The notes under the pieces are model-generated. The model saw only the letters and a program-made list of their open reading frames with translations. It was not told the DNA's origin and searched no databases. Shown piece by piece: positions 14,642 to 36,974 of a DNA stretch of 52,144 bases. The position numbers were made by a program, and so were the translations under genes. This DNA comes from a virus (taxonomy: Duplodnaviria > Caudoviricetes): positions 1 to 52,144 of IMG/VR virus record IMGVR_UViG_3300043435_000349; one strand, 5' to 3'. Position 1 is the first letter of the stretch, and each line of letters begins with the position of its first letter.

Positions 14642-15292
14642 TCACGGGGTGATTTCCCAATTCATCAAAGACTCATAAACGGCTGGCCTCAAGACATCTT
14701 TGTATTGATTGGCTACAGCTTTGATGTATGCTTCCTTTGCTGTCTTGTATGCCATTGATGTTTGTTCCACACTTGGGTATTGACCAACAGTGGTAAGTTT
14801 TCCACCAACTCTGATATGCCCCTGAAATGAGTTGTCTCTCCTGTTGTAGCTTACCCCATTGGGCAGCCCATTGTGGAGGTCATCGCAGCCTACAATCAAT
14901 GAGTTGATTGCTTGCGGTACTAATGCACATGTTTCTGCGGAATATAGTTTTCTGCCACGCCCAAGAATGTCTTTGTCAAGTTCAAGACCATAAGGCTTGC
15001 CGGAATACTCAACCTCTCCGTTTATCCACTGCAAAAAGCTGGCAAATGAAAGCCAATCATCCGAACATGTAACATCCAAATATCTCGGATACTTTGCCTT
15101 GAACCCATTGTTAAAGCACCTGTGAAGCATCGACAGCCACAACACATATTGCCAACAGTTTTTTCCCTCATCGACCCATATTTTGAAGTTGACATCGTTA
15201 TAACCATGACCCTGAACTGTCGGTGGAACAACCCTACGCTCAACACTCACCAACTGATCAATCTCAGCCTGACTAAGTTTTAACTTCTTCAT
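14642..15292 (-). CDS. HNH-like homing endonuclease with AP2-like C-terminal domain
   Basis: W..ML.RC...Y...W..F..F..W...LDKD...YS.ETC..VP..IN motif, then GVSY...F...I...G.Y. Confidence 0.75.
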   Translation of the reverse strand: MKKLKLSQAEIDQLVSVERRVVPPTVQGHGYNDVNFKIWVDEGKNCWQYVLWLSMLHRCFNNGFKAKYPRYLDVTCSDDWLSFASFLQWINGEVEYSGKPYGLELDKDILGRGRKLYSAETCALVPQAINSLIVGCDDLHNGLPNGVSYNRRDNSFQGHIRVGGKLTTVGQYPSVEQTSMAYKTAKEAYIKAVANQYKDVLRPAVYESLMNWEITP

Positions 15293-16518
15293 AACCCCTC
15301 CAACCATTCTCTCAAGAGTTTTTCCATCCTACTACTAAAAATGCAAACGTGCATCACTTCCCCATTACGGATACACCCACGCCATAGCCACTGAATCATC
15401 TCTGACAATGCAAACACATCTGTCTTGACGGGACAATCCCAATCTTGTAGGTAGGATGCCACAGCAACATTAGTATGCCGATTATAACAATGCATCATAT
15501 GTGTAACATGTGCGTGGTCGTTTGTCGCCCTTGTTGATGCAGCAAGCCAGCAGGGAAGTCCATTAGGCTTGATTGTATAACCAACAGGCTTAATCTTCTC
15601 ACTCTTTGCGGCAGATGCACAAGACCTGTATTTAGGGAACGTGTACAACACATTTTCCGATGACACGCCCCAATTCCGGCATGCCCTCAATATGGCGTTC
15701 TTAACCACATTCAGATCACCTTTCATCGGATTCATGTACCACGAATAGGTGAGCTTGTTCCGAAGATTGAAATTCTTAGGTGGTGGGGTGACCACTAATA
15801 GCTCACGCATCTTGTCGCCACAAATCCTCTGTAGTGCCAAAGGCTCTGCAAATGGGATGCTTGTAAACCCTTTGAGCTTGAGGAAGCTGTCTAGGATGTT
15901 ACCCTCAAACAAATAGGTGAGGATGATTACACGCTTCGCACTCTCAAGCAGCTTTGATGGTAGTTGTACAGTGAGCATGGTGTCACTACGCTTGGTTGTG
16001 TACAAACACCCACTATTGCACATCTGACGCAATCGGTAGTATTTATGAGAAGGACAGGCCACCTCAACAGACTGATTCACCCATTCAACCATGCCATCAT
16101 TCTCACCGATCTTGATGAAGCCTTCTTTGATCAACCACTTTAAATCCTCAATTGAATAATCATTGAATGCTTCAATCAGACCAATTTCCTCATCCACCAC
16201 GACAATGTAATCGTGTTGTTGAATGGCTTCAAAATGCTCATCAGTCATCAGTTTGTATAGGCTGTGTGTGCATGACACATTAGCACCAGCTTTCAGAAGC
16301 TCAAGCATAGCACCACTCTTACCTTCACCACTATCTTCTGGTGAATGGAACTCAACATTTCTGACAGCCTGATGCAGTCTACCACCACTCTCAACCTCAC
16401 TCAATAATGGTGACACATAGATATACCTCTGGTGGTAGTTGGCATCAATCCACTTGATGATGCTGCTGCTCTTACCAGACCCCATGATGCTATCAACAAT
16501 CTCAACAACCTTTCCCAT
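15289..16518 (-). CDS. SF2 (DEAD-like) helicase-related protein, putative origin-binding/replication protein
   Basis: Walker A DSIMGSGKS, YVSPLLSE, TH, VVDEE, RATN and QWLWRGCIR. Confidence 0.75.
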   Translation of the reverse strand: MGKVVEIVDSIMGSGKSSSIIKWIDANYHQRYIYVSPLLSEVESGGRLHQAVRNVEFHSPEDSGEGKSGAMLELLKAGANVSCTHSLYKLMTDEHFEAIQQHDYIVVVDEEIGLIEAFNDYSIEDLKWLIKEGFIKIGENDGMVEWVNQSVEVACPSHKYYRLRQMCNSGCLYTTKRSDTMLTVQLPSKLLESAKRVIILTYLFEGNILDSFLKLKGFTSIPFAEPLALQRICGDKMRELLVVTPPPKNFNLRNKLTYSWYMNPMKGDLNVVKNAILRACRNWGVSSENVLYTFPKYRSCASAAKSEKIKPVGYTIKPNGLPCWLAASTRATNDHAHVTHMMHCYNRHTNVAVASYLQDWDCPVKTDVFALSEMIQWLWRGCIRNGEVMHVCIFSSRMEKLLREWLEGL

Positions 16519-16519
16519 A

Positions 16520-17760
16520 CCAACCTCTCAACCTGATTTGGGGCATATCATACACAACTACAGAGCATGGTATTGTTTCTTTATGTAACCGAAATCAACC
16601 ACAGCTAACTGGTGAAATTATTACTGGAAATGTTTAGATCATTTAGGACTCTATCTATAAGCAAAAAGGTAGAAAACTTTATACATTCAATAAGTTACAC
16701 AACAGAACGTAAAGCGTTTCTTTTACCTAATACACCAATATACCATATATGTCATGTTGACATGACGGACAATTACACACAAGAAGATAGTAACAATGTT
16801 GTGTTGACACAACAGAAGTAATGGCTGGGTTAAGGGGACGCAGTCGCCCTTGCTGGGCGGCCAGTGCCGATTCTGTTTAAACATTCAAAAAGAAAACTAA
16901 AATCTTTTCCTGCCCTACAGGACTACTACTATGTGTCACCACATGAGAGATAACATTGTTGTGTTCCACAACAGCATGGTCATGTTGTAGGGCATGTTGG
17001 TCATGTGTACAGGCAATGCCTGTGATTAAAAGCAAGAGCAAAAGATCTTTTTTATTATTAAACAAGCCTACTGTAATAACACAACAGGTATGTGTGGTCA
17101 TGTGCCATGACAGAGGTGTTATCACCTTAGTGTCCCACTAAGAGATGGTCTGTTGTGTTGTCCCAAACGCAAGGCATTTGGGTGTAGTGTTACTACCATG
17201 ATGTACCATCATGTGATAAAGAATTGTGTAAACACAATGTAAACGATGAAATCTTGTGTGAATCAAGACGTGTCATATACATGACACAAGAGAATGTCCT
17301 TATGTGTTTGTTTCTTCTATGATGTTCCATCATGAGTTAGGTGGTTGTTTTTGTGTGTCACAAAATTGTGTTGGTGATGTTGTTGCTCGGCAACAGAGGT
17401 GGTGTCATTCTGACAGGATGTTGTCACTGTTGTGTTCCACAACGCTGGTAGTGATTGCAGCTTCGCTGCCTTCTTGTTGCCACCTAGAAGCAAGCTTCTG
17501 TGTTTCTGTTATTGTTGTAAGCTGTTGTTCTGTGGGGAATGAGGGTAGTGGGGATGGAAATCTTGTGGGGGTGTGGGGTCTGTGGGAATGCTGTTCTTCT
17601 GTGGTAGTGCGGTTCTTTTTGGTGTGGATCTTATTTTGTTATTGTTAGTTCTGTTATTGCCATTTAGTTCTTGACAAATCCCATAAAGATTTACAATGGA
17701 GCATGTACAGGTGTTGACTGTTGTTGTTTGTTCTGGTAGAGTGGTGGTTTAAATCTGGAG
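16520..17760. other. Long intergenic region, putative replication origin 1
   Basis: No credible ORF; lies at a strand-divergence point. Has a 26-bp element shared with 36790-36815, an IHF-like site and repeated hairpins. Confidence 0.45.
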
Positions 17761-17767
17761 AGTTGTT

Positions 17768-18421
17768 ATGGGTAAGTTGAAGTTGTCACAACAGGAAATT
17801 GACCAGTTGGTGCTGGTGGAGCGAGTGGAGAGGAAATCTACAGTGTGTGGCGTTGGAGTTGTTGATGTGGTATTTCAACCCTCAATTAGAGGGAAAGTTA
17901 TCTGGCAATACGAGCTATGGAAGGGTGTTTTGAGGAGATGTTGCTCGGAAAAACTTAAAGCAAATCGACCTCACTATCGGGAGGCATCTATTTGTACGGA
18001 TTGGCTGTCTTTTGCAACGTTTTTCGAATGGGTCAATCTGGAGGTTGGGTACAAAGGAAAGCCTGTTGGGATGGAATTGGATAAAGACATTCTCGTTAAG
18101 GGAAATAAGGTTTATTCACCGACTACCTGCTGTTTTGTCCCATCACGGATCAATAAGCTATTGACCGACAGAAGATCACATCGTGGTCAATATCCTATTG
18201 GTGTAACGTTCAATAAAACAGGTGGTCGCCTAGCGGCATCCTTAAATTGTAATGGTGTGGATGTATTTCTAGGTTTGCATGATACACCAGAGGCTGCTTT
18301 CTTAGCCTACAAGACAGCAAAAGAGTCTTATGTTAAGGAAGTCGCAAATGAATACCGACATGCCCTCACATCAGAAGCATACACCGCACTGATGTCTTGG
18401 GAGGTGGATATTTCTGCTTAG
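17768..18421 (+). CDS. HNH-like homing endonuclease with AP2-like domain (paralogue of 14642-15292)
   Basis: Same motifs (LDKDIL..GNKVYSPTTCCFVP..IN) and a near-identical N-terminus KLKLSQ.EIDQLV.VER. Confidence 0.75.
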   Translation: MGKLKLSQQEIDQLVLVERVERKSTVCGVGVVDVVFQPSIRGKVIWQYELWKGVLRRCCSEKLKANRPHYREASICTDWLSFATFFEWVNLEVGYKGKPVGMELDKDILVKGNKVYSPTTCCFVPSRINKLLTDRRSHRGQYPIGVTFNKTGGRLAASLNCNGVDVFLGLHDTPEAAFLAYKTAKESYVKEVANEYRHALTSEAYTALMSWEVDISA

Positions 18422-19073
18422 CCAAACAAAAGGCAAAGATAAAACAGGGCGGGGGTGGTTGTTGAACATGGCATCTTTTACTTGTCATCAATATTAACCA
18501 TCCACCGCCCCATTTACAAGTTGTTGCTCTGGTAGTGGTGATCTGTGTACCAATGCGCTTTGTCAAACCCGCCCACCTATATCTATGGTTGGGAAGTTAC
18601 AGTTTTCTGATGTAAACTCCCATCAAACAGAAACGCACTGTCTCGCGATGGTTTATTGTAGGAAGGCTGTAGTGTATTCTCAGAATAAGCCAGACATTGG
18701 TTGTGATTATTTATGTCAATAAAATAAAAACATCCTGTGGTCTTTGAGAATTTCTGTAAAAATTTTATACCCCGAGCAAAAAAAGTTTTCAGCCCTATAT
18801 AGGAATTCCCTAGTCTTTACAATCTAAATCCTTTTTGAGAATTGCTCTCATTTCGTTTTAAATCATATCTACCGTTTATCTGGTTTTTCTGCCGTTCATC
18901 ACCTGCCTATTGCTTTTGATGCTGGTTGTGGTATAATCGACCACTTTTGAGATACCACAGCTAACAACTTTTAGCAATGGCTTTCCTGACAAATTACAAA
19001 ACTTTATTTTTATTTTGTAACTCCTATTGACAAGCCATGCCGATCTGTGGTAGCAGACAAAATCATAAAGTAA

Positions 19074-19212
19074 AGCAACAATCATGCCAACTATAAACAT
19101 GGCATGTTCCTTGCATATCATGCAACTTCTATGCCAATCTCAATATTGGCACGTCTATTGCATGGCCTAGAATTCTGGCATGAACATTGCATATATGCAA
19201 TCAGTGTGCCAA
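19074..19212. promoter_or_regulatory. Array of six sigma-54 (RpoN) -24/-12 boxes
   Basis: Six TGGCA-N6-TTGCW 17-mers at 19074(-), 19099(+), 19121(-), 19146(+), 19175(+) and 19196(-). Confidence 0.75.
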
Positions 19213-19514
19213 TGTCTAAGAATCTGGTTTGTCAACTATTTGCCGACGAAATGAGTATGATCCGATGAACGGCATAAAACAAGCTATTTTCGCCACTTGT
19301 CGGAAAATAAAGATATTGGTATTGACTTTCTAAGTTGGCATGTATTGTGCATATGTTCTATCGAGCTTGCTCGAATATCATAGTGATTGTTGTTTGTCAA
19401 TCTTTTTCTGATGAGTGGTAAATAACAGGCTCGTCCGGTGATTGTCTCCACCGAGTGCCAGTGCTGTCGCTAATATAGCTCGTCCGAGGGACGCTGTCAA
19501 CATGTTTAAGAAAT

Positions 19515-19538
19515 AAAAACCGCCAATAATGGCGGCTA
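19515..19538 (-). terminator. Terminator after 19555-19869
   Basis: CCGCCA-ATAA-TGGCGG hairpin with a T-tract on the minus strand. Confidence 0.6.
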
Positions 19539-19554
19539 GTGTAGTCTGGTGATT

Positions 19555-19869
19555 CTAGGCTTTTTCATAATAAACAAAATTCTCTAAGTCGATACCAAAG
19601 CTGGTTACAATCACGCCGGACTCCAAGGCGCGTATATCGGTATAACCGGCAATTTTCCGACCGTCTTCTAGTGTAAAGATAAACCGGCTAGAAGGTTTTG
19701 TGTTGTCACTTGTGGCCTTTACAATCCGAACGACCTTCATTTTAACGCCTTTTTTGATTGAGCTGTTGCCAGTGAATTTTTTGGCACAGCTCCAGCCATA
19801 TGGCTTATTGCCGACAAATACAGGGGCAGACACTTCAGCTTTGCAGCAAGAACATAGGATGGTGGACAT
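19555..19869 (-). CDS. Hypothetical early protein with Cys motif (CxCC...GWSC)
   Basis: GGAG RBS, its own TTGCAT/TATAGT promoter and a terminator. Confidence 0.65.
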   Translation of the reverse strand: MSTILCSCCKAEVSAPVFVGNKPYGWSCAKKFTGNSSIKKGVKMKVVRIVKATSDNTKPSSRFIFTLEDGRKIAGYTDIRALESGVIVTSFGIDLENFVYYEKA

Positions 19870-20153
19870 TGCAGTCACTCCAAAAAAGATACACCGGATC
19901 TGGTGCGTTAAGGCCACTATATAAGACTAATGTGCATCATGCAACTATTTGCCGACGAACGGCAACCGAGGGACAAACAAAACCGGATAAATCAGGCCGG
20001 AACATAGTCCTATATGCTCCCCATTTGCCGTATACGCTTTTTAAATGCAATCGGGTAGGGTAGCCCCATGATCAGGCTAAACAGGCGTATAACGCAAAAT
20101 AGGAAGGACAATAAACAGGCTAGAAATGTTCTAAATCTTTTTGCTTAATAGTG

Positions 20154-20182
20154 TTGACAAGCATATTCAGATGGATAATAAT
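20154..20182 (+). promoter_or_regulatory. Strong sigma70 early promoter
   Basis: TTGACA-N17-TAATAA(T) upstream of the AGGAG RBS of the 20235 gene. Confidence 0.7.
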
Positions 20183-20234
20183 GGCTTCAACAGAGGCGGA
20201 CTGTCCCGCTCAATTTTGAATCAGGAGTTACACC

Positions 20235-20576
20235 ATGGCCACTATCGTGCGTATCGTTAAAACATCTTTGTGGACTGCTTATATTGTTGCTGGTAAAGTG
20301 ACATTGGCTAAAGATGCAAAAACTGGCCGCTTCATTAAGCGTAACCTTGTACAGATGTTCATCGACACATTAGCCGCTCAAGCTGTTTTGAGTGTACGTG
20401 GTTACAATAACAGCTTTAATGCCATTGCTAAAAAAGTGCTTAACGTGCCTAGCTTCTTTAGTGACAAACTTTGTGTACTGTTGTTCACCAGCAACACTCT
20501 AACAGATAGCGAGATGCGGTCGGTAGTGCGTGACTGTCAAAACGCTGGTTACTATACGGACATGATTGCCGCATAA
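20235..20576 (+). CDS. Hypothetical early protein, paralogue of 23381-23692
   Basis: Shared N-terminal GK..LAK.AK.G..IK....Q...D.LA..A motif. Confidence 0.7.
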   Translation: MATIVRIVKTSLWTAYIVAGKVTLAKDAKTGRFIKRNLVQMFIDTLAAQAVLSVRGYNNSFNAIAKKVLNVPSFFSDKLCVLLFTSNTLTDSEMRSVVRDCQNAGYYTDMIAA

Positions 20577-20592
20577 CGTTTCACGTGAAACA
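20577..20592. promoter_or_regulatory. parS-like ParB-binding palindrome
   Basis: CGTTTCACGTGAAACA matches TGTTTCACGTGAAACA at 15 of 16 positions. Confidence 0.7.
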
Positions 20593-21170
20593 TCATAGCC
20601 TGTCACGTCTAACAGGCTAGACACAAAGATACAAATATCTTATTGCCTTATCATGTGAATCATGGTAGGGCTTTTTCGTCTATTTGTCAGCCTTTCCATT
20701 AGACGTGTTTGGTGTTTGTCTCCCCAGTCATGCCGTGCTGTCCCCACTATAACTAATTTACCTATATTGTGTCAACAATAAGCCGACAAACGGCAACCGA
20801 GGGAATCAGCACCGAGACGGGTAGCCCCAGCTATAAGCCAGTAGCCCCAGAACGCTCTGGTTTGCGTTATACGCCGTTCTATTCGAGTCTGGTACAAACA
20901 TACAGGCATATAGGCTGGAAAGCCGTATACGACAATTTAGCTTTTTGAACAAATAATTGTTGACAATGTACTACCTGTATGCTACGCGCATACGCGCATA
21001 CAAATAAGACAAAACATAGCATCGAAAATAAATGCAAATAATTTAATAAAACGCTTGCATCATGTTTTTGTTTTGGATATAGTGGCTCTACCGGCTAGAG
21101 ACGATCTAGTGGGCAGTTAGACAAGGCAACAGACTAGCCTAAATAGTCGATTTTGAATACAGGTGCAATT

Positions 21171-22859
21171 ATGGCATTTTTAACAGTTAAACATTCAATC
21201 AGCAAGGCACAAGACACCTGCGGCTACAATCGTGTAACTCTGATTGATCAATCAACGGGCAAGCGTTATACATGTGTCGGTGGTGGATACGATATGCTAG
21301 GCACGTGCCTAGGTCAGTATTTGCAAGCTAATCACCAAGTGGAGTTGCTTGGTTTAGTTTGTCGTGCAAAGCAAGCGGTGACATTTGATGCTGAATCAAA
21401 CCGCTATCGGTTTACTGATAACCCTGTTAGTAGTGCGCTTTATGGCTTAACCTACAATGCAAAGCTTAACGCTATGCAATTGGACGGAGGCTGCGGTTTT
21501 GAATGTATGGTACGGATAGCGCGTGCAGCCGGTTTGACGGTGAATCTTCACCACGACAAGAAAGGCCGTTTGATCAATCTTTTTGTGGGGTGAATCATGC
21601 AGCTTGTCGGTTATGTATGCATCACAAGCAAAGGTCGATATAAGTATGATCGGCAATCAATGGAAAAAGCTTGTCGGCAATATGGCAAGTCTGGTTTATA
21701 TGAATCTGATTGTTTGTGGATTATTAAAGTCTGGAACAATCAGGGTAAGAGTGGCGGTTATTGTTACAAACCAGTCTATCGCTAGAATGAAACATAGGCA
21801 AGCTATCACGCCTCAAGTGATAGCATTTTTAAGGAGGGACATATAATGTCCAACATGGCACAACCGAAGGTAATTGAGCTAACGCTCGACGATGTAGGGT
21901 ACAATGGCGTAACCAAGCGTGACGTGGGCAAGCTGATGCTAGTATGGCCTAATGGTTGTACAGACATTATTAGCAAGTATGAGCCGATTAATCGTAATTG
22001 GCTAGGACATGTGATTTATGAGAATGGCGGGCGTTATTCACACCACCACAAAAATGATGATGGCGATTTAGTGTTTTACTGTGACATACTACCGGATAAT
22101 GTTGCTGCATTATTCCCGCAAGCCATTGTTATAAGCCGTGGCGATTATGTCAGATCTAAGCTGGTATTTCCCAAAAATACTAGGCTCAAGACACTACGCA
22201 CAACATACAAGGGGGTAAGATTGTATGCCTAAGCTATGGTTATATCGCTACCCTTGCGGCAAGATTGGCTACTTTATTGGGATTCACAAGGTGGCCACAA
22301 AAGTTACTGGTAAGCTCGACAAGCGCAACAAATATGTCATGTTGAATTGTCACCGTTATCAAATAGGCGGTTGGATCAATGGGTAACCTCCTAGCCTTTT
22401 TGTTTTGGTTGTCCCTTTTTTCTTTAATGTTTTGGAGTGTTTAAGATGGATTATCTAACGAATCAGGAGCTTGCTGCATTTAATGCAAGCCAGAAAGTAG
22501 TACAAGCCGGATCTGTTGCCTTTAATGGCTATGTATTCACAGGGTACGATGCACGAGCCTACAATGCTTATTTGTATGACTTAAGCAAAGAACGCCACAA
22601 GCCGACAAGGGATTTTCTGCTTGATCAACGTCACCGTCTTTTTTGCTTAATCATTGGCATGGTAGGAGTGTAAAACATGGCTACACAATTTAGCGTAAGA
22701 CGCAATGTATACTACGCAGGCATGTTAGAATCATCGGACATTGTAGCGTCTGGTTTTGAATCGTACACAATGGCTGACTATGCATGCTACACTATTGCAA
22801 ACAACAGCCAATGTCTGTTAGAGTTTAAAGGTTGCCATATTGTTTTTAGTGTGGTGTGA
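21171..22859 (+). other. Early operon of small hypothetical CDSs (21171-21593, 21597-21785, 21846-22232, 22437-22673, 22677-22859)
   Basis: RBS-preceded ORFs downstream of TTGACA and TTGCAT promoters at about 20960-21085. Confidence 0.6.
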
Positions 22860-23040
22860 AGGCTGCACCCACCCCCACGATTCACAAGGCAAGCGTATAG
22901 CCTTTTTAATATGCGCATTTTTGGTGTGCTGGTGTTTATAGGTTTGAACGCACAAGCATGGGTAAGGTCTACCGTGTGCAAGTGGGATTCTTTGAGTTGA
23001 GACAGCACCCAATACAGGACATTTACTAACACAATCAATT

Positions 23041-23064
23041 AAGCCCCTTTACTGGGGCTTTTTT
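23041..23064 (+). terminator. Rho-independent terminator
   Basis: AAGCCCC-TTTACT-GGGGCTT followed by TTTT. Confidence 0.8.
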
Positions 23065-23071
23065 ACGTCTA

Positions 23072-23088
23072 TGCAAAAGCAATGCCAA
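23072..23088 (-). promoter_or_regulatory. Sigma-54 -24/-12 box
   Basis: Minus strand reads TTGGCATTGCTTTTGCA. Confidence 0.6.
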
Positions 23089-23380
23089 CTTTAAATGTCA
23101 AGTATTATTTGAAAAATGGCCTATGCCTCTAAATGCGCATAGAATCGCGTATACGCGCTTGTTTGCCTTTCTGGTACAAGTGGGTTAGAACATTCCCAGA
23201 GGGGCATTAGAGGCGAAATTACCGTTCATCGGGAAAACTTGACATTCTAAAAAATACATGGGTGAGAATTATGTTCTAATTGTCCGACGAACGGTAGTTG
23301 TGTCTAAAGCCACAATGTAGCATAATAGCTTCACCAAGACGGCAAACGGTGCTTAGTCTGGTAATAGTGAGTGAGACGAA

Positions 23381-23692
23381 ATGGCAAAGTTAGCGAAGGT
23401 AGTAACCAGCAAAATGATCATTTGGGCAAACAATGGCAAGGCTATGCTTGCAAAATGCGCCAAGTCTGGTAAATGGATCAAGTTAGATGATGCACAATGG
23501 CTGCTGGACAATTTAGCACTATTGGCTTGTAAAGCCTTTAGTAAATCAGCAAGCGTGACACAATCAACACAAGCGGCTATTGAGTTTGACAAGACAGTGG
23601 CATTTTTTGGTGTGGTCGGTATTTGGTCGAATGTTCGTGGATGCAACCAGCCCACTGCATATCTAGCCAAACTAGCACTGACTAGCAATTAA
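23381..23692 (+). CDS. Hypothetical early protein, paralogue of 20235-20576
   Basis: Shared N-terminal motif; CATAAT -10 upstream at 23321. Confidence 0.65.
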   Translation: MAKLAKVVTSKMIIWANNGKAMLAKCAKSGKWIKLDDAQWLLDNLALLACKAFSKSASVTQSTQAAIEFDKTVAFFGVVGIWSNVRGCNQPTAYLAKLALTSN

Positions 23693-23950
23693 TGAGATGC
23701 ACAATGGACAAGACAAAAGCAGCAATCAAATACGATGTTTTAAACTTGAATTACCTTGTCAATGCATTAGATAGTGGTGCGATGGACAAACCAGAAGGAG
23801 TTGTTTAATGGAAAGCCAAGCTGTTGAGATGTTAAAACTGCTAATGCTAGCCCTTGATCGCGGTCATGGTGAAGTATGGCAAGTGAGATGTACAGAGGAA
23901 TACCAGAGGGTTGAACAGTGGATGCTAGACAATATAGAAGATGACTAACA

Positions 23951-24026
23951 AGTTCCACGCGGAACAATTGCCGCCGATCATGGCGGCTTTTGTTTGCCCG
24001 CTGTTTACTATGTTCCACGTGAAACA
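23951..24026. promoter_or_regulatory. Two parS-like palindromes flanking a terminator hairpin
   Basis: AGTTCCACGCGGAACA (23951-23966) and TGTTCCACGTGAAACA (24011-24026), with GCCGCC..GGCGGC-TTTT between them. Confidence 0.7.
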
Positions 24027-24308
24027 ATGGCGGCATAGGGTCAGGCGGCTAGGCGGGCTATTGTCCGACAATAATGCCGGTTAATCGACCAGCTCGACCC
24101 AATGCCGTAGAATCGCACAGAATCGCTTGTATGGCGTTTCATGGTCAAGGCATCGAATCAGGCTAGTGGCGGCTATGGGGCGGTATAGCGTGCATCCTAC
24201 GATATTACATAATGTGGTTTGAAGGGGTGCGTCAGGGGTGCGCCGTGATAAACAGTAGAATAGATAGATTTCAAAAACTACATAAAGTGACAGCCCCATA
24301 GACAGGTA

Positions 24309-27300
24309 CTACGTCAGCACCTCAACACACCCAACACACCCCTCAGGACGCCGCTTCTTCATGTAGCTCTTGAGAGCCTTAATGCCATCTTCTGACAACT
24401 TTTCTTTTATCTCCCAACCACAGCCATTACGCACAACAACAGAGTTGCCATCATTGTGGCAAATGAATAAAGCCCCATCTTTCCACACAACACTATTCAC
24501 AATCACCCTCGATATTTTCCTCAAATGAAATAGCCCCTCAAATGAAAAGAGGGGTATTCCAAAAATAATTTTTACCAAATTTGATAACATGGAAACATTT
24601 AATTGTTTAAATTAAATATCACCAATAGCATCCAAATCCTCATTCACATTGTTGACGCTTGCTGTCAGCAGATTCAACAACACAGGGTCAATCATCATTG
24701 CACCCCAATCAACTTTCAACCCATACCTACCGCCACATTTAATGGTTGAGAAAGATTTGGGTGACGTACTGGACGCAATAGGCAAGCCAAATTTGTTCTC
24801 AGAAATCTTGTCAAAACCAAGCTCATTCAACTGTCGGACATACCGAGAGGATAATATTGAATTATTCATACATCCCTCTCCATCTCATACTGCCTGTTAA
24901 GCTCATCCACTGTAGAGCAGATAAGACGTAGTTGGTCGTAGCAGAATCTGGTTGAGCTAGTCTGTGGGTTGGCACACCACTCACCCCATTCTGGGTCAAA
25001 ACAGAATTCCGCCACCCTCAATGCTGATACGTCTGTCTTTTGTTGTAAACACCAACCACTACCCCTTTCCTCAATCCACATGTCATACTTCTTAAACTCT
25101 TTGTTGAGCCACTTCTTTGCGTGAAACACTTTCATCGAAATTCCACCCCGTTCAACATGCTGATAATCAAGATTGCCGCCATTAACAATGCGATACAAGA
25201 AGCTGTCTGCAACCTACCAAAATGGTAGCATGTCACAGATGCCCCTGCAAGCATATAGATAACATTCGTAATAAATTCCATCACAATTCTCCGTAACACC
25301 TGTTGGATCTTTCAATAATAGCTTTCTTGCGAGTGGCCAACTCAGTGCGCTTCCTGTCACTGTACGAATCAACCACGTCGCATACCTTCTGAACATCCAC
25401 TTGCGTAAGACCAGACAAGTGATGCTGGATTATCACCTCTTTGCAACCAAGCAATATTGTCATATTGCTAATACAGTCGTATGTCAACATCTCACACCCA
25501 AGAATGTACCACTTATCTTCAGTAAGCACCTCCATTAAACCCTCTAGCTTTTTCACCCAACGCTTTCCTTCTGTTCAAAATCTGGTTGATGTAGAGCGTA
25601 GTCAATGAAGCATTTCAGCACAGCTTCTACGGGACAATTGCTCAACCCCATGTACACTTTTTGGCAATCTGCCATCCAACGCTTCTCAAACAGGTTGTTG
25701 ACACTAATCTTGTAGTCAAACACCAGATCAAACACCATCTCGTGATGTCCACGTCGCCACACAGGATATTTGTTTCCAGTGATACGCTCATATTCACTAC
25801 ACGCTTTGTTCAAGAGCTTTTCAAACTGCAATGAATCAGACATGTTGATAGCTCCTAGAAAGATAGTTGAGTGTGTCGGCGTAGAGGGAAAGCACAGATG
25901 GAATCATAAAATACCTATCAGCACCTTCATCTGCTGCAATCCAAACATCGCCACACCTCGCAAATGAGAAAACACAGGTCATACTGTCAATCTCAAATAC
26001 ACCAACACTATCCTCGCTCATCTCAATCAATCTTAGAGCATGCTCTTTATAACGTAGCAACATCTCACCACTAAACTTAAAATAATTGTACATCACAAAC
26101 CCCCCGCATCAACAGATGTCCACCTGCGCCACTTTCCACCAAAATAGGAAGCACCATTCTCTAAATCCTCCACCCACACGTCAACGTGGTTAGCACCCCC
26201 GCCAAATATCTCCCAGAGTCCATCCTCTATTTGCTCTGATGTGCCCGTCTCAATCCATTGGTATTCCTCACCATCTCGCACCACCTCAAACAGCCAAGTC
26301 TTATGATCATCAGACATCAGCATTCTCCATTTCAACAGCATCCACCTGAAGGCTATACCACTCACGAAAAGAGCTATGATCACTCTCATCATAGTAAGCG
26401 TTCTTGGCGTAGAATGTCCCACCTGTGTAAGCAGCCAAAACAATGCCTGTTGTCTTGGGGTGACAGAGCTTGCGAAGAAGCTCTAGCTTTTGTTTGAATG
26501 TTGGCTTGTCTTTCGTCACTAGCACAGGGCGGGAATGTGTATGACATTCCCATGTGTCCCCTGATGTTGCCACAAATGATGTTACATAAACAGAAGGCAT
26601 GTTATTCTCCAATACACACAAGCTCAAAATGAACATCAGCCCATTTCTGACCCCTGCTCACTTCCCAAGACATATCTCTAACAAACCGCACAGCCACAAA
26701 CCCCTGACCATCAAGACACAGTGACACATCAAACAAGACATCTTCAATGCTTGGTTTCGTGTCGTAAGTTTGCCATGCAAATTTGTCACTTCTTGGGACT
26801 AAGACCCCCTTCCCCCACACACGAAGCTCGTGCTTTGTCATAATCACCCCTCACGCTTAGTTAGCTCATCCCAACCCACCACTACACCAAACACAGCTTC
26901 TGTCAGAGTGGATGTCTCAAAAGAGAAACCCCTGTATTTCGCAACCCATAAATCAGGCTCACTGAAATAACTAACACCAACCTTCAGTGAGTTAATCATA
27001 TGCGCCGCAAGATGCAATGGCTGTAGCTCATCAGTGTATGGCAACACAACAGGAGCTAGACGCTTGTAAGTCTGTAGAGCCATCTTGTGGTTTTTCATAC
27101 TGCCCTCCTCCTGAACCCAACTACCCCAAAGCTTACCGTAATAAGCTCTGTTGCACTAATCACTACTGTTGACATCTTAATCTCCAAGCCTCTGTTGAAT
27201 CACTTGTAACAACATACGCAACCCTGTGTCATCAAGGTGAATGTCTGCGCTGTTCTCGCCACTTCCGTAATCCTGAGAAACCCTTAGATTCCAACCAATG

Positions 27301-28565
27301 TCATCTTTTACAATACTCACCCAACCCTCAAGCCCAACACCATGAGAATAAATCCCGTATTCTGTCTTTCGGGTCTCGCACTCAGGTGGATGGGTCACTG
27401 TAGCAAGTTTTGCAGCATACAGCCACTTCTGAACATCTTGCTCACTCCACTTTTCCATGATCAGACCCTACTATCCCGTACTAGATACTTGCCCTTCCCC
27501 AACAACTGGTCACACGTCTGCTGGGCATAACTACGATCATGTGTAGACATCCAAAGATCATGTCCTGCCGCACTACGGACATAATAGCGAGCATTACGCT
27601 TGTTGTCATTCAGGTTGATGAAGATGTTGTTGAATGTGATTTCGCCTTTGCCTTCGATCAATGCACGATTGATGTCTTGCTCGTTGGTTGTTGCCAATGC
27701 TTTCATGCTGTTTCCTCTGTAGATTCGATTACCGTCTGTTGCATTGTATTCAATGCTTCAAGACATGGCTTAATGTACTTGATGCTTGCCTCTGTGTCAA
27801 CATTTAAATACGCTTGATCATACTGAAATCCATATGAGCCATCTTGTTGACCAATGAAGCGTCCAATTACGGGCTGGTGTGGTTGTGAGCCGTCTGTAAG
27901 ACATAGCTTTTCTGTGTCCAGTCCAATTGCTGTTCCACGAACAGCTTTCAGGATAGCTGCGTGAGCTTTTGGGCTAATTTCCATCATTCACCTCAATAAA
28001 TTTTGCCTTTTCTAAATCTTCGCAAACAACAGCATTCATTGCGTTCAGAAGACGGCAGATGTCAATCAGGTCACTGTAGCGGTAATCACTATCACTACAT
28101 ACTGGCTTGGCATGAAACTCGCCACAATAAATTCCGATTTCCCAACATGCTCGATTATAGCCATTCTCAGGAAAGTGAATCTCCAAGAACATCTTATCTC
28201 TGTCGAAATCAACTTCCCAACCACTTACGCAACGCTCAATCGTTTCAGCAGACAGCCTATCATAAACAGACCGAATGTAGCTGACTCCGCTGCTAGTTTC
28301 AATTTCCATAAACACTGTCCCCATTCAGTAGTTTCAATGTGCGATACACAAGCCCGAAGTAATGCTGGTGTTGAAAACCACCATTACCAGCCCTGTCCCA
28401 TACACCCCATTCGTACCCATCGTGCAAGATCTCAATGGAGCAACTTCCGCCATAATTCAAACCAATGACGATCTGCTGTTTATCCCAATCAAATTTGTGG
28501 CTTACGTTCCACCACTCAGACCAAATGGATTCTATTTGCTGCTCCAGCTCTAGCTTTGTCATTGT
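24309..28565 (-). other. Cluster of about 14 small hypothetical CDSs
   Basis: Contiguous, mostly overlapping minus-strand ORFs of 80-116 aa (e.g. 24309-24590, 24612-24869, 24866-25198, 25281-25556, 25553-25843, 27177-27458, 27461-27706, 27974-28324). Confidence 0.6.
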
Positions 28566-28579
28566 GATATCAGTCACTG

Positions 28580-29272
28580 TCAACCTCCGATCATACCATT
28601 CAAGACAAGCCATGCGCTTGCAGCCACAAGAGGTACTTGTCCGTTTCCAAGAGCTTTAAGTCTGTCCACCCTGAAGGCCACCCCATCAGATACTCGAAGT
28701 TGTTCGGGGTAGGTTTCCCAAACGCCGTTACGAAGTTCCTGCAACTCTTGTGTTTCTGCATACTCGGTGCTGCGAAGTTTGCAATAGTCGTCGGTGTATG
28801 CAAGAAGCCAAAATCTGTCCCGTTCATGGTCTGCACCAACGTCTTTCGCTGAAAGTTTTGTATGCAGACACCTGTAACCCTCTTGCTCAAGGTCTTTCTT
28901 TGCCAATAGTATGGCTTTCTCGGATACGTTTTCAGCAAAGACTGCTCTAGGGCATACCTCTCGGACAACCCTGTACATTTCTGCCCAAAGGTCTTTTGAA
29001 GCAATGTTTCTACCTCTTGCCGCAGCAGAGAATGCTTGACAGGGGAATCCTCCAGAAACCAAGTCCACAGTTCCTTTCCAAGCCCTTCCATCAAACGTAC
29101 AGATGTCGTCCCATATCGGGAAACTTCCAATTGAGCTTCGTTCGTTTTGCCGTTGAATGAGAACTTCGATGCAGTATTGATCTCGTTCCACAGCGCAAAC
29201 AATGTTGTGTCCGAGGATATTACTTGCAAGTATTCCTCCACCACAACCCGCGAAAAGTGCCAACTCATTCAT
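28580..29272 (-). CDS. DNA (cytosine-5) methyltransferase, catalytic chain
   Basis: Motif I LFAGCGG, IV GGFPCQ, VI ENV, VIII HERDRFW and X LGNG. Short (230 aa), with no evident TRD or motif IX. Confidence 0.9.
   Translation of the reverse strand: MNELALFAGCGGGILASNILGHNIVCAVERDQYCIEVLIQRQNERSSIGSFPIWDDICTFDGRAWKGTVDLVSGGFPCQAFSAAARGRNIASKDLWAEMYRVVREVCPRAVFAENVSEKAILLAKKDLEQEGYRCLHTKLSAKDVGADHERDRFWLLAYTDDYCKLRSTEYAETQELQELRNGVWETYPEQLRVSDGVAFRVDRLKALGNGQVPLVAASAWLVLNGMIGG
28600..29268 (-). CDS. Nested alternative-frame ORF, putative second methyltransferase subunit (TRD/motif IX)
   Basis: 222-codon frame entirely inside the MTase gene. C-terminal P..FEYLMGWPSGWT resembles motif IX. Confidence 0.6.
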   Translation of the reverse strand: MSWHFSRVVVEEYLQVISSDTTLFALWNEINTASKFSFNGKTNEAQLEVSRYGTTSVRLMEGLGKELWTWFLEDSPVKHSLLRQEVETLLQKTFGQKCTGLSERYALEQSLLKTYPRKPYYWQRKTLSKRVTGVCIQNFQRKTLVQTMNGTDFGFLHTPTTIANFAAPSMQKHKSCRNFVTAFGKPTPNNFEYLMGWPSGWTDLKLLETDKYLLWLQAHGLS

Positions 29273-29535
29273 ACATCCTCCAAAACAATACTACCGCCCG
29301 CATACTCATTATAGCCTAGCGAGTTGACAATTATAGTGTGACGACCCTTTCCTACCACAAAAGCCGTCAAACCGTTAATTACGCTTGCCGTCTTTCCAAG
29401 CATTGAGTAACCACCCTTCAACCTTGACTCAACAACACATCTTTGCTCATTACTGATAAAAACCAAACCCTCAAGCATCACTACCCCCAATCCATTCAAC
29501 AAACCCAAGATCATAAAGCTGTTTCTCTGTTGCAA
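29269..29535 (-). CDS. Hypothetical protein
   Basis: ORF coupled to the MTase start; exact start codon uncertain. Confidence 0.5.
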   Translation of the reverse strand: MQQRNSFMILGLLNGLGVVMLEGLVFISNEQRCVVESRLKGGYSMLGKTASVINGLTAFVVGKGRHTIIVNSLGYNEYAGGSIVLEDV

Positions 29536-29962
29536 GCTGCAAAATCACCTTCCTGTAACGCTCTGCATTGTCCAACCACTTCCCACCCTCACGGATAGAC
29601 TCTCGGTAGTTGAATGTTACATCTGCAATCTTAACAACCCTTGCTCGTTGGCTGCCGTATCTGTCAATGATATCAATATATTCCTGATAGCGAGCTTTAC
29701 CAAGATCATTAGTGAGCATCAGTATGTCGTCAGCAATATCCCACTTGAATAGGCCACAGAGGGTCTTGTAGGTCATGTTGGTGTCCTCGCAATTATCATG
29801 ACACAATGCCACAATGTGCGTACCTTCCTCCTGAACACCAAGCTCATGTTGCAAGATCCCCAAAACACCAAGAATATGGTGATGGAAATAGTCCTTGTCA
29901 CCATATTTCTGACCAGCGTGTAGACGCTTTGAAAGCTCATACGCAAATGTTGCATCGTTCAT
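29471..29962 (-). CDS. HD-domain protein, SpoT/Mesh1-like small alarmone hydrolase family
   Basis: H.GQKY...Y..H...V, LCHDNCEDT, LT and VKIAD...N motifs. Confidence 0.8.
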   Translation of the reverse strand: MNDATFAYELSKRLHAGQKYGDKDYFHHHILGVLGILQHELGVQEEGTHIVALCHDNCEDTNMTYKTLCGLFKWDIADDILMLTNDLGKARYQEYIDIIDRYGSQRARVVKIADVTFNYRESIREGGKWLDNAERYRKVILQLATEKQLYDLGFVEWIGGSDA

Positions 29963-30044
29963 AAAGCATTCCTCCGTTTCTGTTGAAGCCATTATTGACC
30001 AAACAAAACAGCATGTCAACATATTTCTTTTATTCAGACAAATA

Positions 30045-30080
30045 AAAAGGGAAGCTGCAATTAAGCGGCTTCCCTTCTTC
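30045..30080 (-). terminator. Rho-independent terminator
   Basis: AAGGGAAGC..GCTTCCCTT hairpin with a T-tract on the minus strand. Confidence 0.7.
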
Positions 30081-30740
30081 TTAGCTCAACAACTTTGGTG
30101 GAACAACATCAGAGTCGTCCTGTGCTGCACGTTTCTCAAGACGCTCAATAACCTCGCTACCAAGCATCCAAAACTCCTTCCCACAGAAGAATTGCTCAAG
30201 CTCTTTGTCTGACAAGAAGCCAGAATAGATGTCTGTCATCAATTTCTTGTGTGCGTGAGTTTCGAACTCTACATAAGCAGCTAGGTCAGATGCCTTGCCA
30301 CCAACACCCCAAGAGCTTTGTTCATGAATCATGAAGCGAGCATTCTCACACACTGTATGGCTATGACAACTCAAGAACAATGCACTACCACCAGACATAG
30401 CTGTAGACATCAATGTCCCATGCACATGAGCTTCTGTCATCGCCATCGCATTCAGGATAGCAATAGTTGTGTCTACGCTACCACCATTGGTTGCAAACAC
30501 AATCTCAATGAAATCCCCTTGCCCAGCATCAGCCAAGAAATCAAGAAGCTCTCGATACTCACTGACATCGCCAATGTCCCCATCCAAGCGGTAGCGAGCC
30601 TGCACCTTTGAATGCTCTGTCATTGTTAGAGCAGAGGCTTTCTCTGGCACATTTCCTTCCATCAGGAAGTCTAGGTCGAGGGCATTGCGCTTTGGCAATG
30701 CTTCACGCTTAGGTGATAGTTTACGCTTCATTTGCTTCAT
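30081..30740 (-). CDS. ClpP-like serine protease
   Basis: TNGGSV, AMSGGS (catalytic Ser), FMIHE and EFW motifs. Confidence 0.8.
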   Translation of the reverse strand: MKQMKRKLSPKREALPKRNALDLDFLMEGNVPEKASALTMTEHSKVQARYRLDGDIGDVSEYRELLDFLADAGQGDFIEIVFATNGGSVDTTIAILNAMAMTEAHVHGTLMSTAMSGGSALFLSCHSHTVCENARFMIHEQSSWGVGGKASDLAAYVEFETHAHKKLMTDIYSGFLSDKELEQFFCGKEFWMLGSEVIERLEKRAAQDDSDVVPPKLLS

Positions 30741-31006
30741 TCCGCCCCCACAACACGACCTTCTGAATTGATCGTGATATTGAAATAGTTTTGAATGCCA
30801 CCTTCCCACTTTTGGAAATCGGCAGCATCCACACCACATCTACCAGAACCCCGCTCTAACAGGGCGTTATTCAACACATTGCCGATAACAACACCAGCTT
30901 CAATTTTGCCAAGTTTGTCGCAAACAAAAGCATAACTGTCTGGTGAGTGGTCAATAAGCACACGCTTCATATATTTGCAGGATGTACAATTTAGCACTAC
31001 TGCCAC
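30737..31006 (-). CDS. Hypothetical Cys-containing protein
   Basis: Coupled ORF with CxxC...C...C. Confidence 0.55.
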   Translation of the reverse strand: MAVVLNCTSCKYMKRVLIDHSPDSYAFVCDKLGKIEAGVVIGNVLNNALLERGSGRCGVDAADFQKWEGGIQNYFNITINSEGRVVGAE

Positions 31007-31752
31007 CCCTCTTTGTTGTATGCAATCACAAAGTCTTTGGTAATGCCACTACGGACAATATCCTCTTCACCAAACTCAACAACTCCAGCATCACGAATCT
31101 CGTGCTTCTGTAAGATGTCGCACAAGAAGGTGAGTCCATCCTTACCATTCTTCACGTCATTCTGTTTTGCATCACCCATACAAACCAATGTGCAGTTTTC
31201 ACCAATGCGTGTTGTGATAGCCTGAATCTCGGTAATCTCACAACTTTGGCATTCATCAACCAAGACAACAGCATTCTTGAATGATCGACCACGAATAACC
31301 TCTAGTGGAACAATCTCAATCCTACCATCCTCAAGCATGATGTCCACTGTAGCGGATGACAACGCTTCCCGAAGATAACCTAACATTGGCAGAAGGAATG
31401 GTGTGATCTTCTCAACCAAGTTACCACTGTTAAACCCCATAGTCTTGATTGAAGCATATGGGCGTGTCAGCACCAACTTCTCAATCTTACCTGCCAACAG
31501 TAGACGAGCAGCCCACTGACATGCAACGTAGCTCTTGCCAGTTCCGGCAGATCCAGATGCCACAACAACACTAAGCTGTTCGAGCATGTGCAGGTAGAGC
31601 TTCTGATTATTGGTCTTTGGCTTGATAGGCTCAACAGCCTTCTGTTGCCGCTCTTGCTCCCATTTATTCTTGGGAACATGTGGAGATGTGCCTTCTAGTT
31701 TACGAGCTTTGATGCTGCTATTCCTTTCGTAACGCCGAGCCTGATTACTCAT
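30997..31752 (-). CDS. phoH: PhoH-like ATPase
   Basis: GSAGTGKS, LTRP, IRGRSF, VDECQ, TRIG, GD..Q.D and DIVRS motifs. Confidence 0.92.
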   Translation of the reverse strand: MSNQARRYERNSSIKARKLEGTSPHVPKNKWEQERQQKAVEPIKPKTNNQKLYLHMLEQLSVVVASGSAGTGKSYVACQWAARLLLAGKIEKLVLTRPYASIKTMGFNSGNLVEKITPFLLPMLGYLREALSSATVDIMLEDGRIEIVPLEVIRGRSFKNAVVLVDECQSCEITEIQAITTRIGENCTLVCMGDAKQNDVKNGKDGLTFLCDILQKHEIRDAGVVEFGEEDIVRSGITKDFVIAYNKEGWQ

Positions 31753-33864
31753 GTTGAAGCCCTTCCTGTACTGCTATCGACAAGGACAAATTTAGGGAAA
31801 GGGCATTCAAGCCCCGTCCCGTATATTTCAAACCAACCGTGCATGTTGAATGTCTGTTTGGCTAAGTCACGCTCAACCACCTTCCAGTCATCATCAACAC
31901 GGCACAGGACAAACCCAATGACATAAGCCCTTCCATTGCGAATAGGGAATGCTTCAACGATGTGGTCATTCCATGATAAGCCTTCCATTTCATGTGCAAA
32001 TTGCTTGTCACATTCCACACCATACATAAGCATAGCTGCCATCTCATTTGTCCTGTTGTGTTATTTGCTGCTAGACGAATCCAAGCCCCTCGTTCATTCT
32101 GAGTCTACCTGAGCTTTGGTTCGACGTTTTGGGGCTGGTTTTTCCTGCTGTTCACCTACCGTGATGCCTGCCGTTACATCATCATGTTTTGGTAGTTCAT
32201 CCTGAGCAAGCTGTCCAACGCCCACACCAACAACGGCATCAAGCTCAGGTTCTTGCTCAGAATCGGGCTTCGACACTTTGGTCATCGTAGCAAAGAACAT
32301 ACCAGCCACTTGCTTCGGGTAGGTCTTGATGTCATTCAAGAGGATGCTGTAGCCTTCGCCAATGTGATCCTCAATCTGCTCAAGAAACTTGGCAAGGCTA
32401 TGGTGCTTGATGATCTTTGATTCAATGACAAATGGCATTGCTTTAGGGTCGGTCATGTGTGTTGCTCCTATGTTTGATTGCCTAATGTTACATTACAATC
32501 CTGTGTTGTCAAACAGAATGTTGTGTTGGTTGTGTAATGGCAGACCCACTAAAGTCTACTCATCCCCATTTTAAGCCCAACAACCTTCTTGTCAAACATG
32601 CGATGTAGGTCATGCCAGATGTCAAACAGCTCATCAATACGACTGCTGCTAAAATCATTCACATTGCAATCACACCAACCAAGATGCCCAATGTAATCTA
32701 GTGGCAAAATGACAAGCATCTCATCGTAGTCTGCACCATCATAAGGAATAATCGCCCTCACTTTCTCATGGAAATGCACATGATCCCAAATGTCATCATA
32801 ATCAACATCCATGATCTTGCAGAAATCTTCCACTGTACAACCAACACCAACCACAGCTTCATAACTATAGCTCATGACAACTTCCCCGCTTTGATCCAAA
32901 AGACACGCCCTTCTTCAATCATCTGCTTGTGCCAACCAGCACCACGACCCCACTTGTTAAAGTCATCCACACCAAGAGCAACCAAAGCAGCTACAGAATC
33001 TTCTTTCGTAGGCTCTCGGTCAAGATAGACTGTATGATACTCGGTGTAGAAGTCGTCATTAGAGTGACCACCCCATTTCTGCTCGCAAAACACCCAGATC
33101 GTCATGACGTAAGCTCCTGCTTATATGTTGTCAAACTCAGAACAGCCTTATCCCCAGTGTAGTGGGTGTAGACGTGATCTTCCCCGTTGATCAGTTTGGT
33201 CGCATATTCCAAACGATCTTCACCCAATGACATAAGCCCAAGCGGATTGTATTTAAACCACTGCTCAATAACATCAAGCTCTTTAATACGGCTCAAAGGC
33301 TCTTTAGTCACACAGACAATATCCACTTGTCGGTCTAACATCACATAAGGACGCTCGTATGCTTCCTCATCAAACACAGTCATCTCAATGACGTGTACAT
33401 ACACACGGTCTGTCATTTCTCAACCCTCAAGCTCATAAACAAAATCAATTACATCCTCCCAATTGCCAACAAGCTCTAGGTAGCCCCCGACATAAACACT
33501 GTGATCACCACTTTGACAAAGACCCACCTCAATACAACGCTCACCGAACATTGCCCGATATGACCTGTAATAACCAGACATATCGTATGTTTGCTCAAAA
33601 CCCACCCCTTTCAGGAAACTCTCAAGCTCTTGCAGATGGTCATTCATCACATTCCCCGTCAAACAGATCACTTAGTCCAGCTTTATCCAACACAGCCCGA
33701 CACCACTTGGCAGAAATAAGACATTGCTCGTCCGCATCTGGACTTTTAACCTTTTGAAATACTTCATACATCTTATCCAGCAAATAGTTGGTTGTAATGA
33801 TAGCCGCTTCACGATCACCCAACCTACTCATGAACCTCTCTTTAACAACTTCATAGCTCATCAT
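31749..33864 (-). other. Small hypothetical CDSs (31749-32042, 32094-32456, 32549-32875, 32872-33105, 33102-33416, 33420-33647, 33640-33864)
   Basis: Contiguous minus-strand ORFs, mostly coupled. Confidence 0.6.
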
Positions 33865-34846: not shown

Positions 34847-34945
34847 CTCTCTCCGTTAAAAGCAATCTTGCTTGGTAAAGCCATATTCCCACACATCAGA
34901 CAGAATGTAAAGCATTTCTTTCATGTTTTTACAAAGAGAATGGCT

Positions 34946-36424: not shown

Positions 36425-36429
36425 ACAAC

Positions 36430-36970: not shown

Positions 36971-36974
36971 TTAA

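Follow-up and report, generated by a model that had tools for sequence, protein, structure and literature searches.

Chromosomal ParB loads at its centromere-like site, parS, as a CTP-dependent sliding clamp. The temperate phages P1 (ParAB-parS) and N15 (SopAB) encode their own ParA and ParB beside the site and have site sequences of their own. For the virulent Bacillus subtilis phage phi29, five parS sites have been reported that are bound by the host ParB, Spo0J, and the phage genome is segregated into the prespore and entrapped in the spore (PMC2731898); PMC9437464 summarises the same work. Here we describe three parS-like sites in a virus record of 52,144 nucleotides (Duplodnaviria; Caudoviricetes; IMGVR_UViG_3300043435_000349). 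This stretch, hereafter the window, is the entire IMG/VR record. An earlier note on this DNA had proposed that the phage, apparently a lytic one, may recruit host ParB or SMC at these sites to position, compact or protect incoming DNA, or to disturb host chromosome segregation. Its proposal is supported in part. That host ParB may be recruited is the best supported of the readings that we weighed because the match to parS is non-random, no ParB was found in the record, 12 complete relatives gave no match to the ParB_N domain and other complete, unrelated ParB-less virus records hold 2-12 exact sites; with ~44% of the genome unseen, a ParB of the phage may still exist.

The sites were scored against the chromosomal-type parS consensus TGTTNCACGTGNAACA, as given by the earlier note. 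The same pattern also recovers the known sites of phi29. In the phi29 record we found four exact sites, at 10445, 15903, 17243 and 18760, and a fifth candidate at 11796, which has three mismatches and keeps the inner palindrome. When up to three mismatches are allowed, there are 10 matches in 19.3 kb against 1.32 expected, a number reached in none of 200 shuffles. No ParA or ParB is among the 35 annotated features of this record. At 17243-17258 the site comes directly after the stop of gene 16 and takes up the space as far as the bidirectional terminator TD1, 3 nucleotides (nt) away, where two operons converge.

Literature hits on parS in phages mostly concern engineered parS/ParB pairs used as a fluorescent label for phage DNA. 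We found no report of a natural host-type parS in a virulent phage of a Gram-negative bacterium in the literature searched, which includes few subscription journals. The idea, which the earlier note had treated as unprecedented, does have a precedent, since phi29 is already reported to use host Spo0J at parS (PMC2731898). The strategy proposed here would thus be of a known kind, and what differs is the phage type and probably the host, which would be a non-sporulating one.

The three sites and the search for a phage ParB

Site 3 (TGTTCCACGTGAAACA, 24011-24026) matches the consensus exactly. Site 1 (CGTTTCACGTGAAACA, 20577-20592) has a single mismatch, at the outermost base, and site 2 (AGTTCCACGCGGAACA, 23951-23966), the weakest of the three, has two mismatches, one at the outermost base and one at a base of the CACGTG core. 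The three 16-bp palindromes span 3.45 kb, a spacing like that of bacterial parS clusters; both the 16-bp palindrome and the clustering within a few kilobases are therefore as in chromosomal-type parS.

Across the whole window, exactly three matches with up to two mismatches were found against 0.46 expected, and none of 100 dinucleotide shuffles reached three. With up to three mismatches the number rises to six against 4.28 expected, and since 26 of 100 shuffles also reach six, the additional matches at 27196, 47595 and 48206 were rejected as noise. Base composition gives an expectation per window of 2.2e-4 for an exact site, 9.3e-3 for a site with one mismatch and 0.18 for a site with two. The product for all three together is ~3.7e-7 per window, a figure that leaves out both their clustering within 3.5 kb and the intergenic placement of 3/3. 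There is no general enrichment of palindromes in the window, which holds 26 16-mers with at least 7 of 8 complementary pairs against ~21.5 expected. By the gene list of this analysis, intergenic DNA makes up 10.5% of the window, and 9.1% of its 16-mers fall wholly within such DNA; given the latter share, the intergenic position of all three sites has p ~7.6e-4. The sequences and coordinates of the sites are exactly those that the earlier note had given, and it was also right that all of them are intergenic.

A further palindrome, CTAGGCACGTGCCTAG, is located between the parS loci at 21297-21312, inside the open reading frame (ORF) 21153-21593. This palindrome is perfect over its 16 bp and has a CACGTG core as in parS. 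The window holds just one other of this length and perfection, two in all against 0.87 expected, so that it may be a product of chance.

We searched the 52-kb record in six frames with profiles of ParB_N (PF02195) and of the ParB HTH domain (PF17762) and found nothing, at E<=1 in the case of ParB_N. Nothing matched the integrase profile PF00589 at E<=0.1 in the record. Families of ParA, ParB or integrase were likewise not found when 98 ORFs were compared with PHROGs and 83 ORFs with Pfam, a level at which alone ParA was looked for. These searches bear out the earlier note, which had listed no parA, parB or integrase gene in the window. A plasmid-prophage ParABS module, with parA and parB near the site, was not found within the 52 kb, and the ORFs that flank the sites belong to no known family. 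In addition, none of 12 complete relatives gave a match to ParB_N (0/5 IMG/VR records, 0/6 isolates and 0/1 for the record G020 described below), and ParB is outside the known gene set of the lineage.

Relatives, hosts and other virus records

The record is linear and is estimated to be 56% complete, and the full genome is roughly 90 kb. In terminase and portal, it shares 43-48% identity with virulent myoviruses of 88-97 kb that infect Acinetobacter (B9, Ab5, TaPaz, Phab24 and BS46), Psychrobacter (D'Alembert) and Edwardsiella, and ~40% with Pseudomonas phages. From ClpP to the tail, the genes of the record follow the order of those in phage B9, and the minus-strand block at 24081-37623 is collinear with B9 genes 12-37. 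By this comparison, the unseen ~40 kb would be expected to carry what remains of the tail, together with the baseplate and the replication genes. The B9 genome begins on its left with small plus-strand ORFs, a block that meets a minus-strand block at a bidirectional terminator, and sites 2 and 3 are placed at the corresponding junction of the window.

All of these nearest phages infect Gram-negative bacteria, which argues against a spore-forming host. In 401 genomes sampled from the phylum around a Mesorhizobium genome, the consensus pattern found clustered sites in 277, with at least one exact site in each and usually one to three within a few kilobases; a reversed control pattern matched one genome, as read from the table. 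A host with a cognate ParB is likely on these sequence matches. A scan of genomes with the tail-fibre ORF was tried as a clue to the host and rejected, as only collagen-like repeats matched (in a Mesorhizobium and a Beijerinckiaceae genome).

One complete record, G020 (90,229 bases, 100% complete), was picked up through its exact parS and has a large terminase (TerL) 40% identical to that of the window. A plus-strand array of small ORFs in G020 ends in a terminator, and parS lies 40 nt past it, followed by a gene-free stretch and then by a minus-strand block. The parS of G020 is 17.6 kb upstream of TerL, and site 3 of the window is 16.2 kb upstream. ParB_N, a ParA of the AAA_31 type and integrase were all not found in G020. 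Directly after the exact parS of this record (L145 8912-8959), we also observed three copies of ACATAGGT spaced 13-14 nt apart, the first of which overlaps the last three bases of parS; an AT-rich, gene-free kilobase then follows. Three copies were reached in 2 of 200 shuffles.

An exact-site scan of IMG/VR returned at least 126 stretches, and the 16 records of at least 50 kb among the matches listed were examined. Among these listed matches, five of the 16 hold 2-12 exact sites, and none of the five has ParB_N; ParB_N was found in two of the 16, both with a single site. The richest is G016 (169 kb), which has 12 exact sites and one with a single mismatch, 13 sites within ~19 kb around the record ends (L146/L147). 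Its terminase is ~50% identical to those of Brevibacillus/Bacillus phages and it carries a tyrosine recombinase, which fits the Firmicute pattern. G011 has three exact sites within 260 bases (L148), G008 has two exact sites, and the ~60-kb records G021 and G013 have three (L149) and two (L150), respectively. A further record, G010, pairs one exact site with a one-mismatch site 100 bases away (L151).

The terminase of G013 is 63% identical to that of a gammaproteobacterium phage and 52-56% identical to those of Pelagibacter phages, which places G013 in a Gram-negative marine virulent phage type. The 486-amino-acid (aa) terminase of G021 falls into the same PHROG family and has a parS ~130 nt upstream, and in each of these two records one site lies 130-190 nt upstream of the terminase gene. 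The sites in these ParB-less records are mostly intergenic, among small ORFs. Besides G020, ParB_N is lacking in at least four complete records that have more than one exact site.

Sixteen shorter records (6-35 kb), picked by eye for at least two exact parS each, also had ParB_N in 0/16, and many of them are fragments (L018, L026, L038, L053, L059, L061, L073, L080, L091, L099, L104, L107, L117, L131, L135 and L141). Several of the shorter multi-site records are 11-18 kb long with inverted terminal repeats, which suggests phi29-like phages; two with such repeats, of 11-16 kb, may be phi29-like or tectivirus-like. We estimate from 4^14 that chance would yield hundreds of single exact sites in IMG/VR, whereas repeats within one record would not be expected. 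Orphan parS in ParB-less phages of Gram-negative hosts looks recurrent, and the literature searched gave no paper that reports this.

Genomic setting of the sites

The first base of site 1 directly follows the TAA stop of a plus-strand ORF of 113 aa (20235-20576) that has no known family. Directly to the right of the site are two hairpins, at 20596-20619 and 20645-20671, the second with a T run, and a leftward promoter-like site at 20775-20746 faces it, so that site 1 is where two transcription units converge. Site 2 follows the final small ORF of the plus strand (23808-23948), 3 nt past its stop, and after another 3 nt comes a strong intrinsic terminator hairpin on that strand at 23970-23987 (GCCGCCGATCATGGCGGC, then a T run), which separates site 2 from site 3. 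Site 3 stands 24 nt beyond this hairpin, within a 130-nt gap between converging blocks, of which the plus-strand one ends at 23948 and the minus-strand one at 24081. An 89-aa minus-strand ORF (23767-24036) that overlaps sites 2 and 3 was taken as spurious because it is antisense to ORF 23808-23948 and spans the terminator.

Folded as RNA, the 16-mers of sites 1, 2 and 3 give -3.8, -6.2 and 0 kcal/mol, which is weak throughout and amounts to no hairpin at site 3; the 16-mers themselves are not terminators. Adjacency to a terminator was found for 3/3 sites of the window, for the site of G020 and for one of the four exact phi29 sites, whereas few of the 22 sites examined in five further records show it, and it is not a general rule at phage parS. 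The earlier note had placed the sites just downstream of early ORFs. Sites 1 and 2 do abut or follow ORF stops, and the label "early" is itself drawn from the small family-less ORFs, the sigma-70-like promoters and the synteny with phage B9.

To the left of the sites is a gene-poor hub (18422-20234), in which both strands carry sigma-70-like promoters and a motif array is densely packed; its counterpart in phage B9 is probably the beginning of the early region. The array consists of the motif TGGCAY-N5-TTGCW, which has seven exact matches in the window against a chance expectation of ~0.1 by our own estimate. Six of them are packed into 140 bases (19074-19211) on alternating strands, forming palindromic units of 36-37 bp; the further match is at 23072-23087 on the minus strand, and a one-mismatch copy is found at 19336-19351. 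This motif corresponds to the sigma-54 -24/-12 consensus. The array, 1.4 kb left of site 1, could represent either sigma-54-type promoters or an operator or iteron array. A 32-nt motif occurs at 19233-19264, 19942-19973 (the reference copy) and 20773-20804 with identities of 66-100%, and its core is also present at 23279-23294; it is placed just upstream of the -35 element of minus-strand sigma-70-like promoters. A 44-nt leader is present in two copies (19437-19480 and 20711-20754). These repeated motifs at early promoters are candidate sites for some regulator.

The 113-aa ORF that abuts site 1 has a paralogue of 103 aa on the same strand (23381-23692), 260 nt upstream of site 2. The two proteins are 32% identical over 60 aa (E 2e-7), and one member of the family precedes each parS locus. 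A profile search with the family found 27 unnamed representatives among 1.84 billion proteins, which share an N-terminal motif of ~45 residues and have variable, sometimes hydrophobic, tails. A word-indexed homologue search returned only the query itself and one 88% relative. No match was found in Pfam, PHROGs or NCBIfam, a sequence search of the PDB gave nothing below E 0.7, and an IMG/VR scan seeded with the paralogue alignment gave no matches. Structure models reached a mean pLDDT of 53.4 with a 3-sequence alignment and 64.7 with a 29-sequence alignment, and an N-terminal domain of three strands plus a helix was modelled at pLDDT 86-89. There was no convincing fold match for this family, with a best E of 0.7 in Foldseek, a best Z of 4.9 in VIA-align, under the noise level of that tool, and a best score of 0.84 in Protein Atlas, under its lead threshold.

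Nucleotide-metabolism genes occupy 1-10.9 kb of the window, the array of family-less small ORFs lies on the plus strand at 20.2-23.9 kb, and the minus-strand block at 24081-37623, which converges on sites 2 and 3, comprises small ORFs, a C5 DNA methyltransferase, an HD hydrolase, a ClpP-like protease and PhoH. To the right of this block, which ends at 37.6 kb, are the endolysin, large terminase, portal, protease, capsid and first tail genes. Two HNH endonucleases of PHROG 953 are encoded at 14642-15307 and 17768-18421, and two paralogous large ORFs of PHROG 2467, which has no function assigned, at 15289-16518 and 34946-36424; the first of these adjoins an HNH gene. The sole tRNA gene is a tRNA-Met (39325-39400). 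The endolysin ORF probably starts further downstream than its predicted start at 39377, because this start is overlapped by the tRNA gene. No spanin pair was recognisable after the endolysin.

Explanations and comparison with known systems

We propose that the three sites are working centromere-like parS of the chromosomal type, to which host ParB binds and by which the phage hitch-hikes on the host segregation machinery, and we give this reading a probability of roughly 45%. Its first part, that host ParB binds the predicted sites at all, appears probable. Once the DNA is injected, dimers of host ParB would be loaded at the three sites, as sliding clamps that depend on CTP, and would spread as a coat over the early region. 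The phage chromosome, which is not integrated, would then be handled like the host origin region and be positioned and partitioned by ParA, and it may also receive SMC. The likeliest benefit would be that reported for phi29: with the lytic cycle stalled or slow, as in a starved or slow-growing host, the phage genome would be carried with the host chromosome and not lost. In a non-sporulating Gram-negative host, spore entrapment would be replaced by a carrier or pseudolysogenic state.

Several points weigh against this proposal. The relatives that were scanned, isolates and IMG/VR records alike, are distant, with 38-45% terminase identity. None of the six nearest isolates has any match with up to two mismatches, and none of 12 IMG/VR TerL relatives has a parS-like palindrome or a match with zero or one mismatch; one of the 12 has a single two-mismatch match, which is non-palindromic and is the only match with up to two mismatches in the 19 related records apart from those of G020. 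Because they are absent from the six isolates and the 12 TerL relatives, the sites are not a conserved feature of the lineage. The earlier note had held that absence from close relatives would count against its proposal. Absence is what was found in the distant relatives (0/6 and 0/12); one distant relative, G020, carries an exact site in a comparable position. The note had also advised a search of the rest of the genome for parA/parB and of relatives for syntenic parS; the complete relatives gave ParB_N in 0/12, and syntenic parS was found in none, the placement in G020 alone being analogous. Since G020 shares only head genes with the window and was selected for having parS, its placement is to be taken as an analogy and not as proven synteny.

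No close relative that covers the parS region was found among 50,697 phage records searched at the DNA level in near and distant modes. Protein-seeded scans of IMG/VR with the 113-aa ORF and a 409-aa ORF gave no matches, and a 146-aa ORF gave one 42%-identical match, in an unrelated 42.7-kb record that holds only a non-palindromic two-mismatch match. Of two metagenome scans, one was empty and the other returned a 3.4-kb contig, 89% identical to the 409-aa ORF, which ends short of the sites; closer relatives are thus present only as scraps, this contig and another of 1.4 kb. It also counts against the proposal that site 2, with its mismatch in the CACGTG core, may bind poorly, and that only head genes of 43-48% identity point to a kind of host. 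What a phage would gain in a non-sporulating host is purely conjectural. Furthermore, the record is 56% complete, so that a phage ParB may lie in the missing ~44%. Finally, the Spo0A boxes that suspend the lytic cycle of phi29 have no counterpart identified in the window, where Spo0A boxes were not searched for.

Host ParB might instead be loaded to serve lytic growth, either by titration away from the host origin as part of takeover or by bringing SMC or a protective coat to the early region that enters first. All support for ParB binding applies equally to this possibility. The sites are in the early region beside the promoter hub that matches the left end of B9, and three sites per genome would multiply with replication into hundreds of parS copies. 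However, in phi29, the sole studied case, parS is reported to be used for segregation in a suspended cycle (PMC2731898), a short lytic cycle would gain little from disturbing host segregation, and no SMC-related gene or nuclease inhibitor was found among the window ORFs scanned against PHROGs and Pfam; a lytic use is therefore unlikely. The incompleteness of the record leaves room for a ParB of the phage itself, with or without ParA, in the missing ~44%, in which case the sites would be ordinary partition or regulatory sites in the style of a plasmid-prophage or a KorB-like silencer. ParBs of phages and plasmids usually recognise distinct sites of their own, which counts against such a gene. 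So do the absence of ParB_N from all 12 complete relatives and the synteny with B9, by which the missing part should consist of the tail, baseplate and replication modules. ParB_N is also absent from G020 and from four or more further complete records with several exact sites, and no integrase or ParA was found in the 52 kb. Although ParB-fold proteins are described as common in phages and mobile elements (PMC12704722), we regard a phage-encoded ParB as quite improbable.

The palindromes could also be bound by a protein other than ParB, for example by the 113-aa/103-aa paralogues, or could act as RNA or termination signals. All three lie no more than 70 nt from terminator-like hairpins at the ends of transcription units, a paralogous small gene precedes each parS locus, and in a minus-strand RNA sites 2 and 3 can pair around the terminator. 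Yet an exact 14/14 match to a foreign consensus would be unexpected for an unrelated operator (2.2e-4 per window), the 16-mer hairpins are as weak as given above, terminator adjacency is not general in other phages, and the paralogue family has no recognisable DNA-binding fold by Foldseek (best E 0.7) or VIA (best Z 4.9); we think such a role has a slim chance of being correct. As for chance, or neutral relics without function, any scan of very many windows meets single exact sites, and site 2 on its own is unremarkable at 0.18 expected per window. The joint expectation of ~3.7e-7 per window, the 0/100 shuffles that reach three and a background of essentially zero in the relatives make this origin very improbable.

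If host ParB is indeed used in this way, the sites would give pseudolysogeny or the carrier state a concrete molecular basis. According to PMC9437464, such states are widely reported, though no cis or trans elements have been defined for them outside spore entrapment by phi29. Three 16-bp sites, 48 bases in all, would make the question of pseudolysogeny directly testable. A phage called strictly lytic could persist in cells, which would be relevant to phage therapy and ecology. In annotation, parS on a viral contig need not signal a plasmid-prophage. With ParB-less viral records of 2-12 exact sites among the matches listed, there are signs that the device is perhaps widespread. More tentatively, and with greater doubt than for the window itself, virulent phages whose Gram-negative hosts do not sporulate may have acquired clusters of orphan host-type parS repeatedly and independently, as a device by which a stalled, unintegrated genome would become a pseudo-plasmid partitioned by host ParB. 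The candidates are this ~90-kb myovirus, G020 and the Pelagibacter-phage-like G013 and G021.

In conclusion, the window shares features with several known systems. Compared with chromosomal ParABS centromeres, it has the same 16-bp consensus and likewise one to three sites within a few kilobases, whereas its sites are on a virus, without an adjacent parA-parB operon or a known nearby replication origin, and at three per 52 kb they are far denser than the one to three per several Mb of chromosomes. With P1 and N15 it has in common centromere-like sites on a phage genome, which in those phages keep the unintegrated genome heritable; it differs in that no ParA, ParB or integrase was found in the record and in that the sites are of the host chromosomal type. 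CtrA boxes in phages of Alphaproteobacteria, which are linked to lytic deferment and which the authors liken to phi29 (PMC9437464), offer a parallel of another kind, as binding sites for a host protein that couple the cycle of a virulent phage to the state of the host cell. They are, however, transcription-factor sites at promoters, and those of the window are of the segregation-protein type and stand at operon ends. The closest likeness is to phi29, a virulent phage that also has several host-type parS sites, and in which the order of stop, parS and terminator at 17243-17258 is that of sites 1 and 2; phi29 has no annotated ParB or ParA, and none was found in the 56% of the genome that the window covers. 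On the other hand, phi29 infects a spore-forming Firmicute and is a podovirus of 19 kb with protein-primed replication and most of its sites inside genes, whereas the window is part of a ~90-kb myovirus with 3/3 sites intergenic, and its nearest relatives infect Gammaproteobacteria, which have no spores for entrapment.

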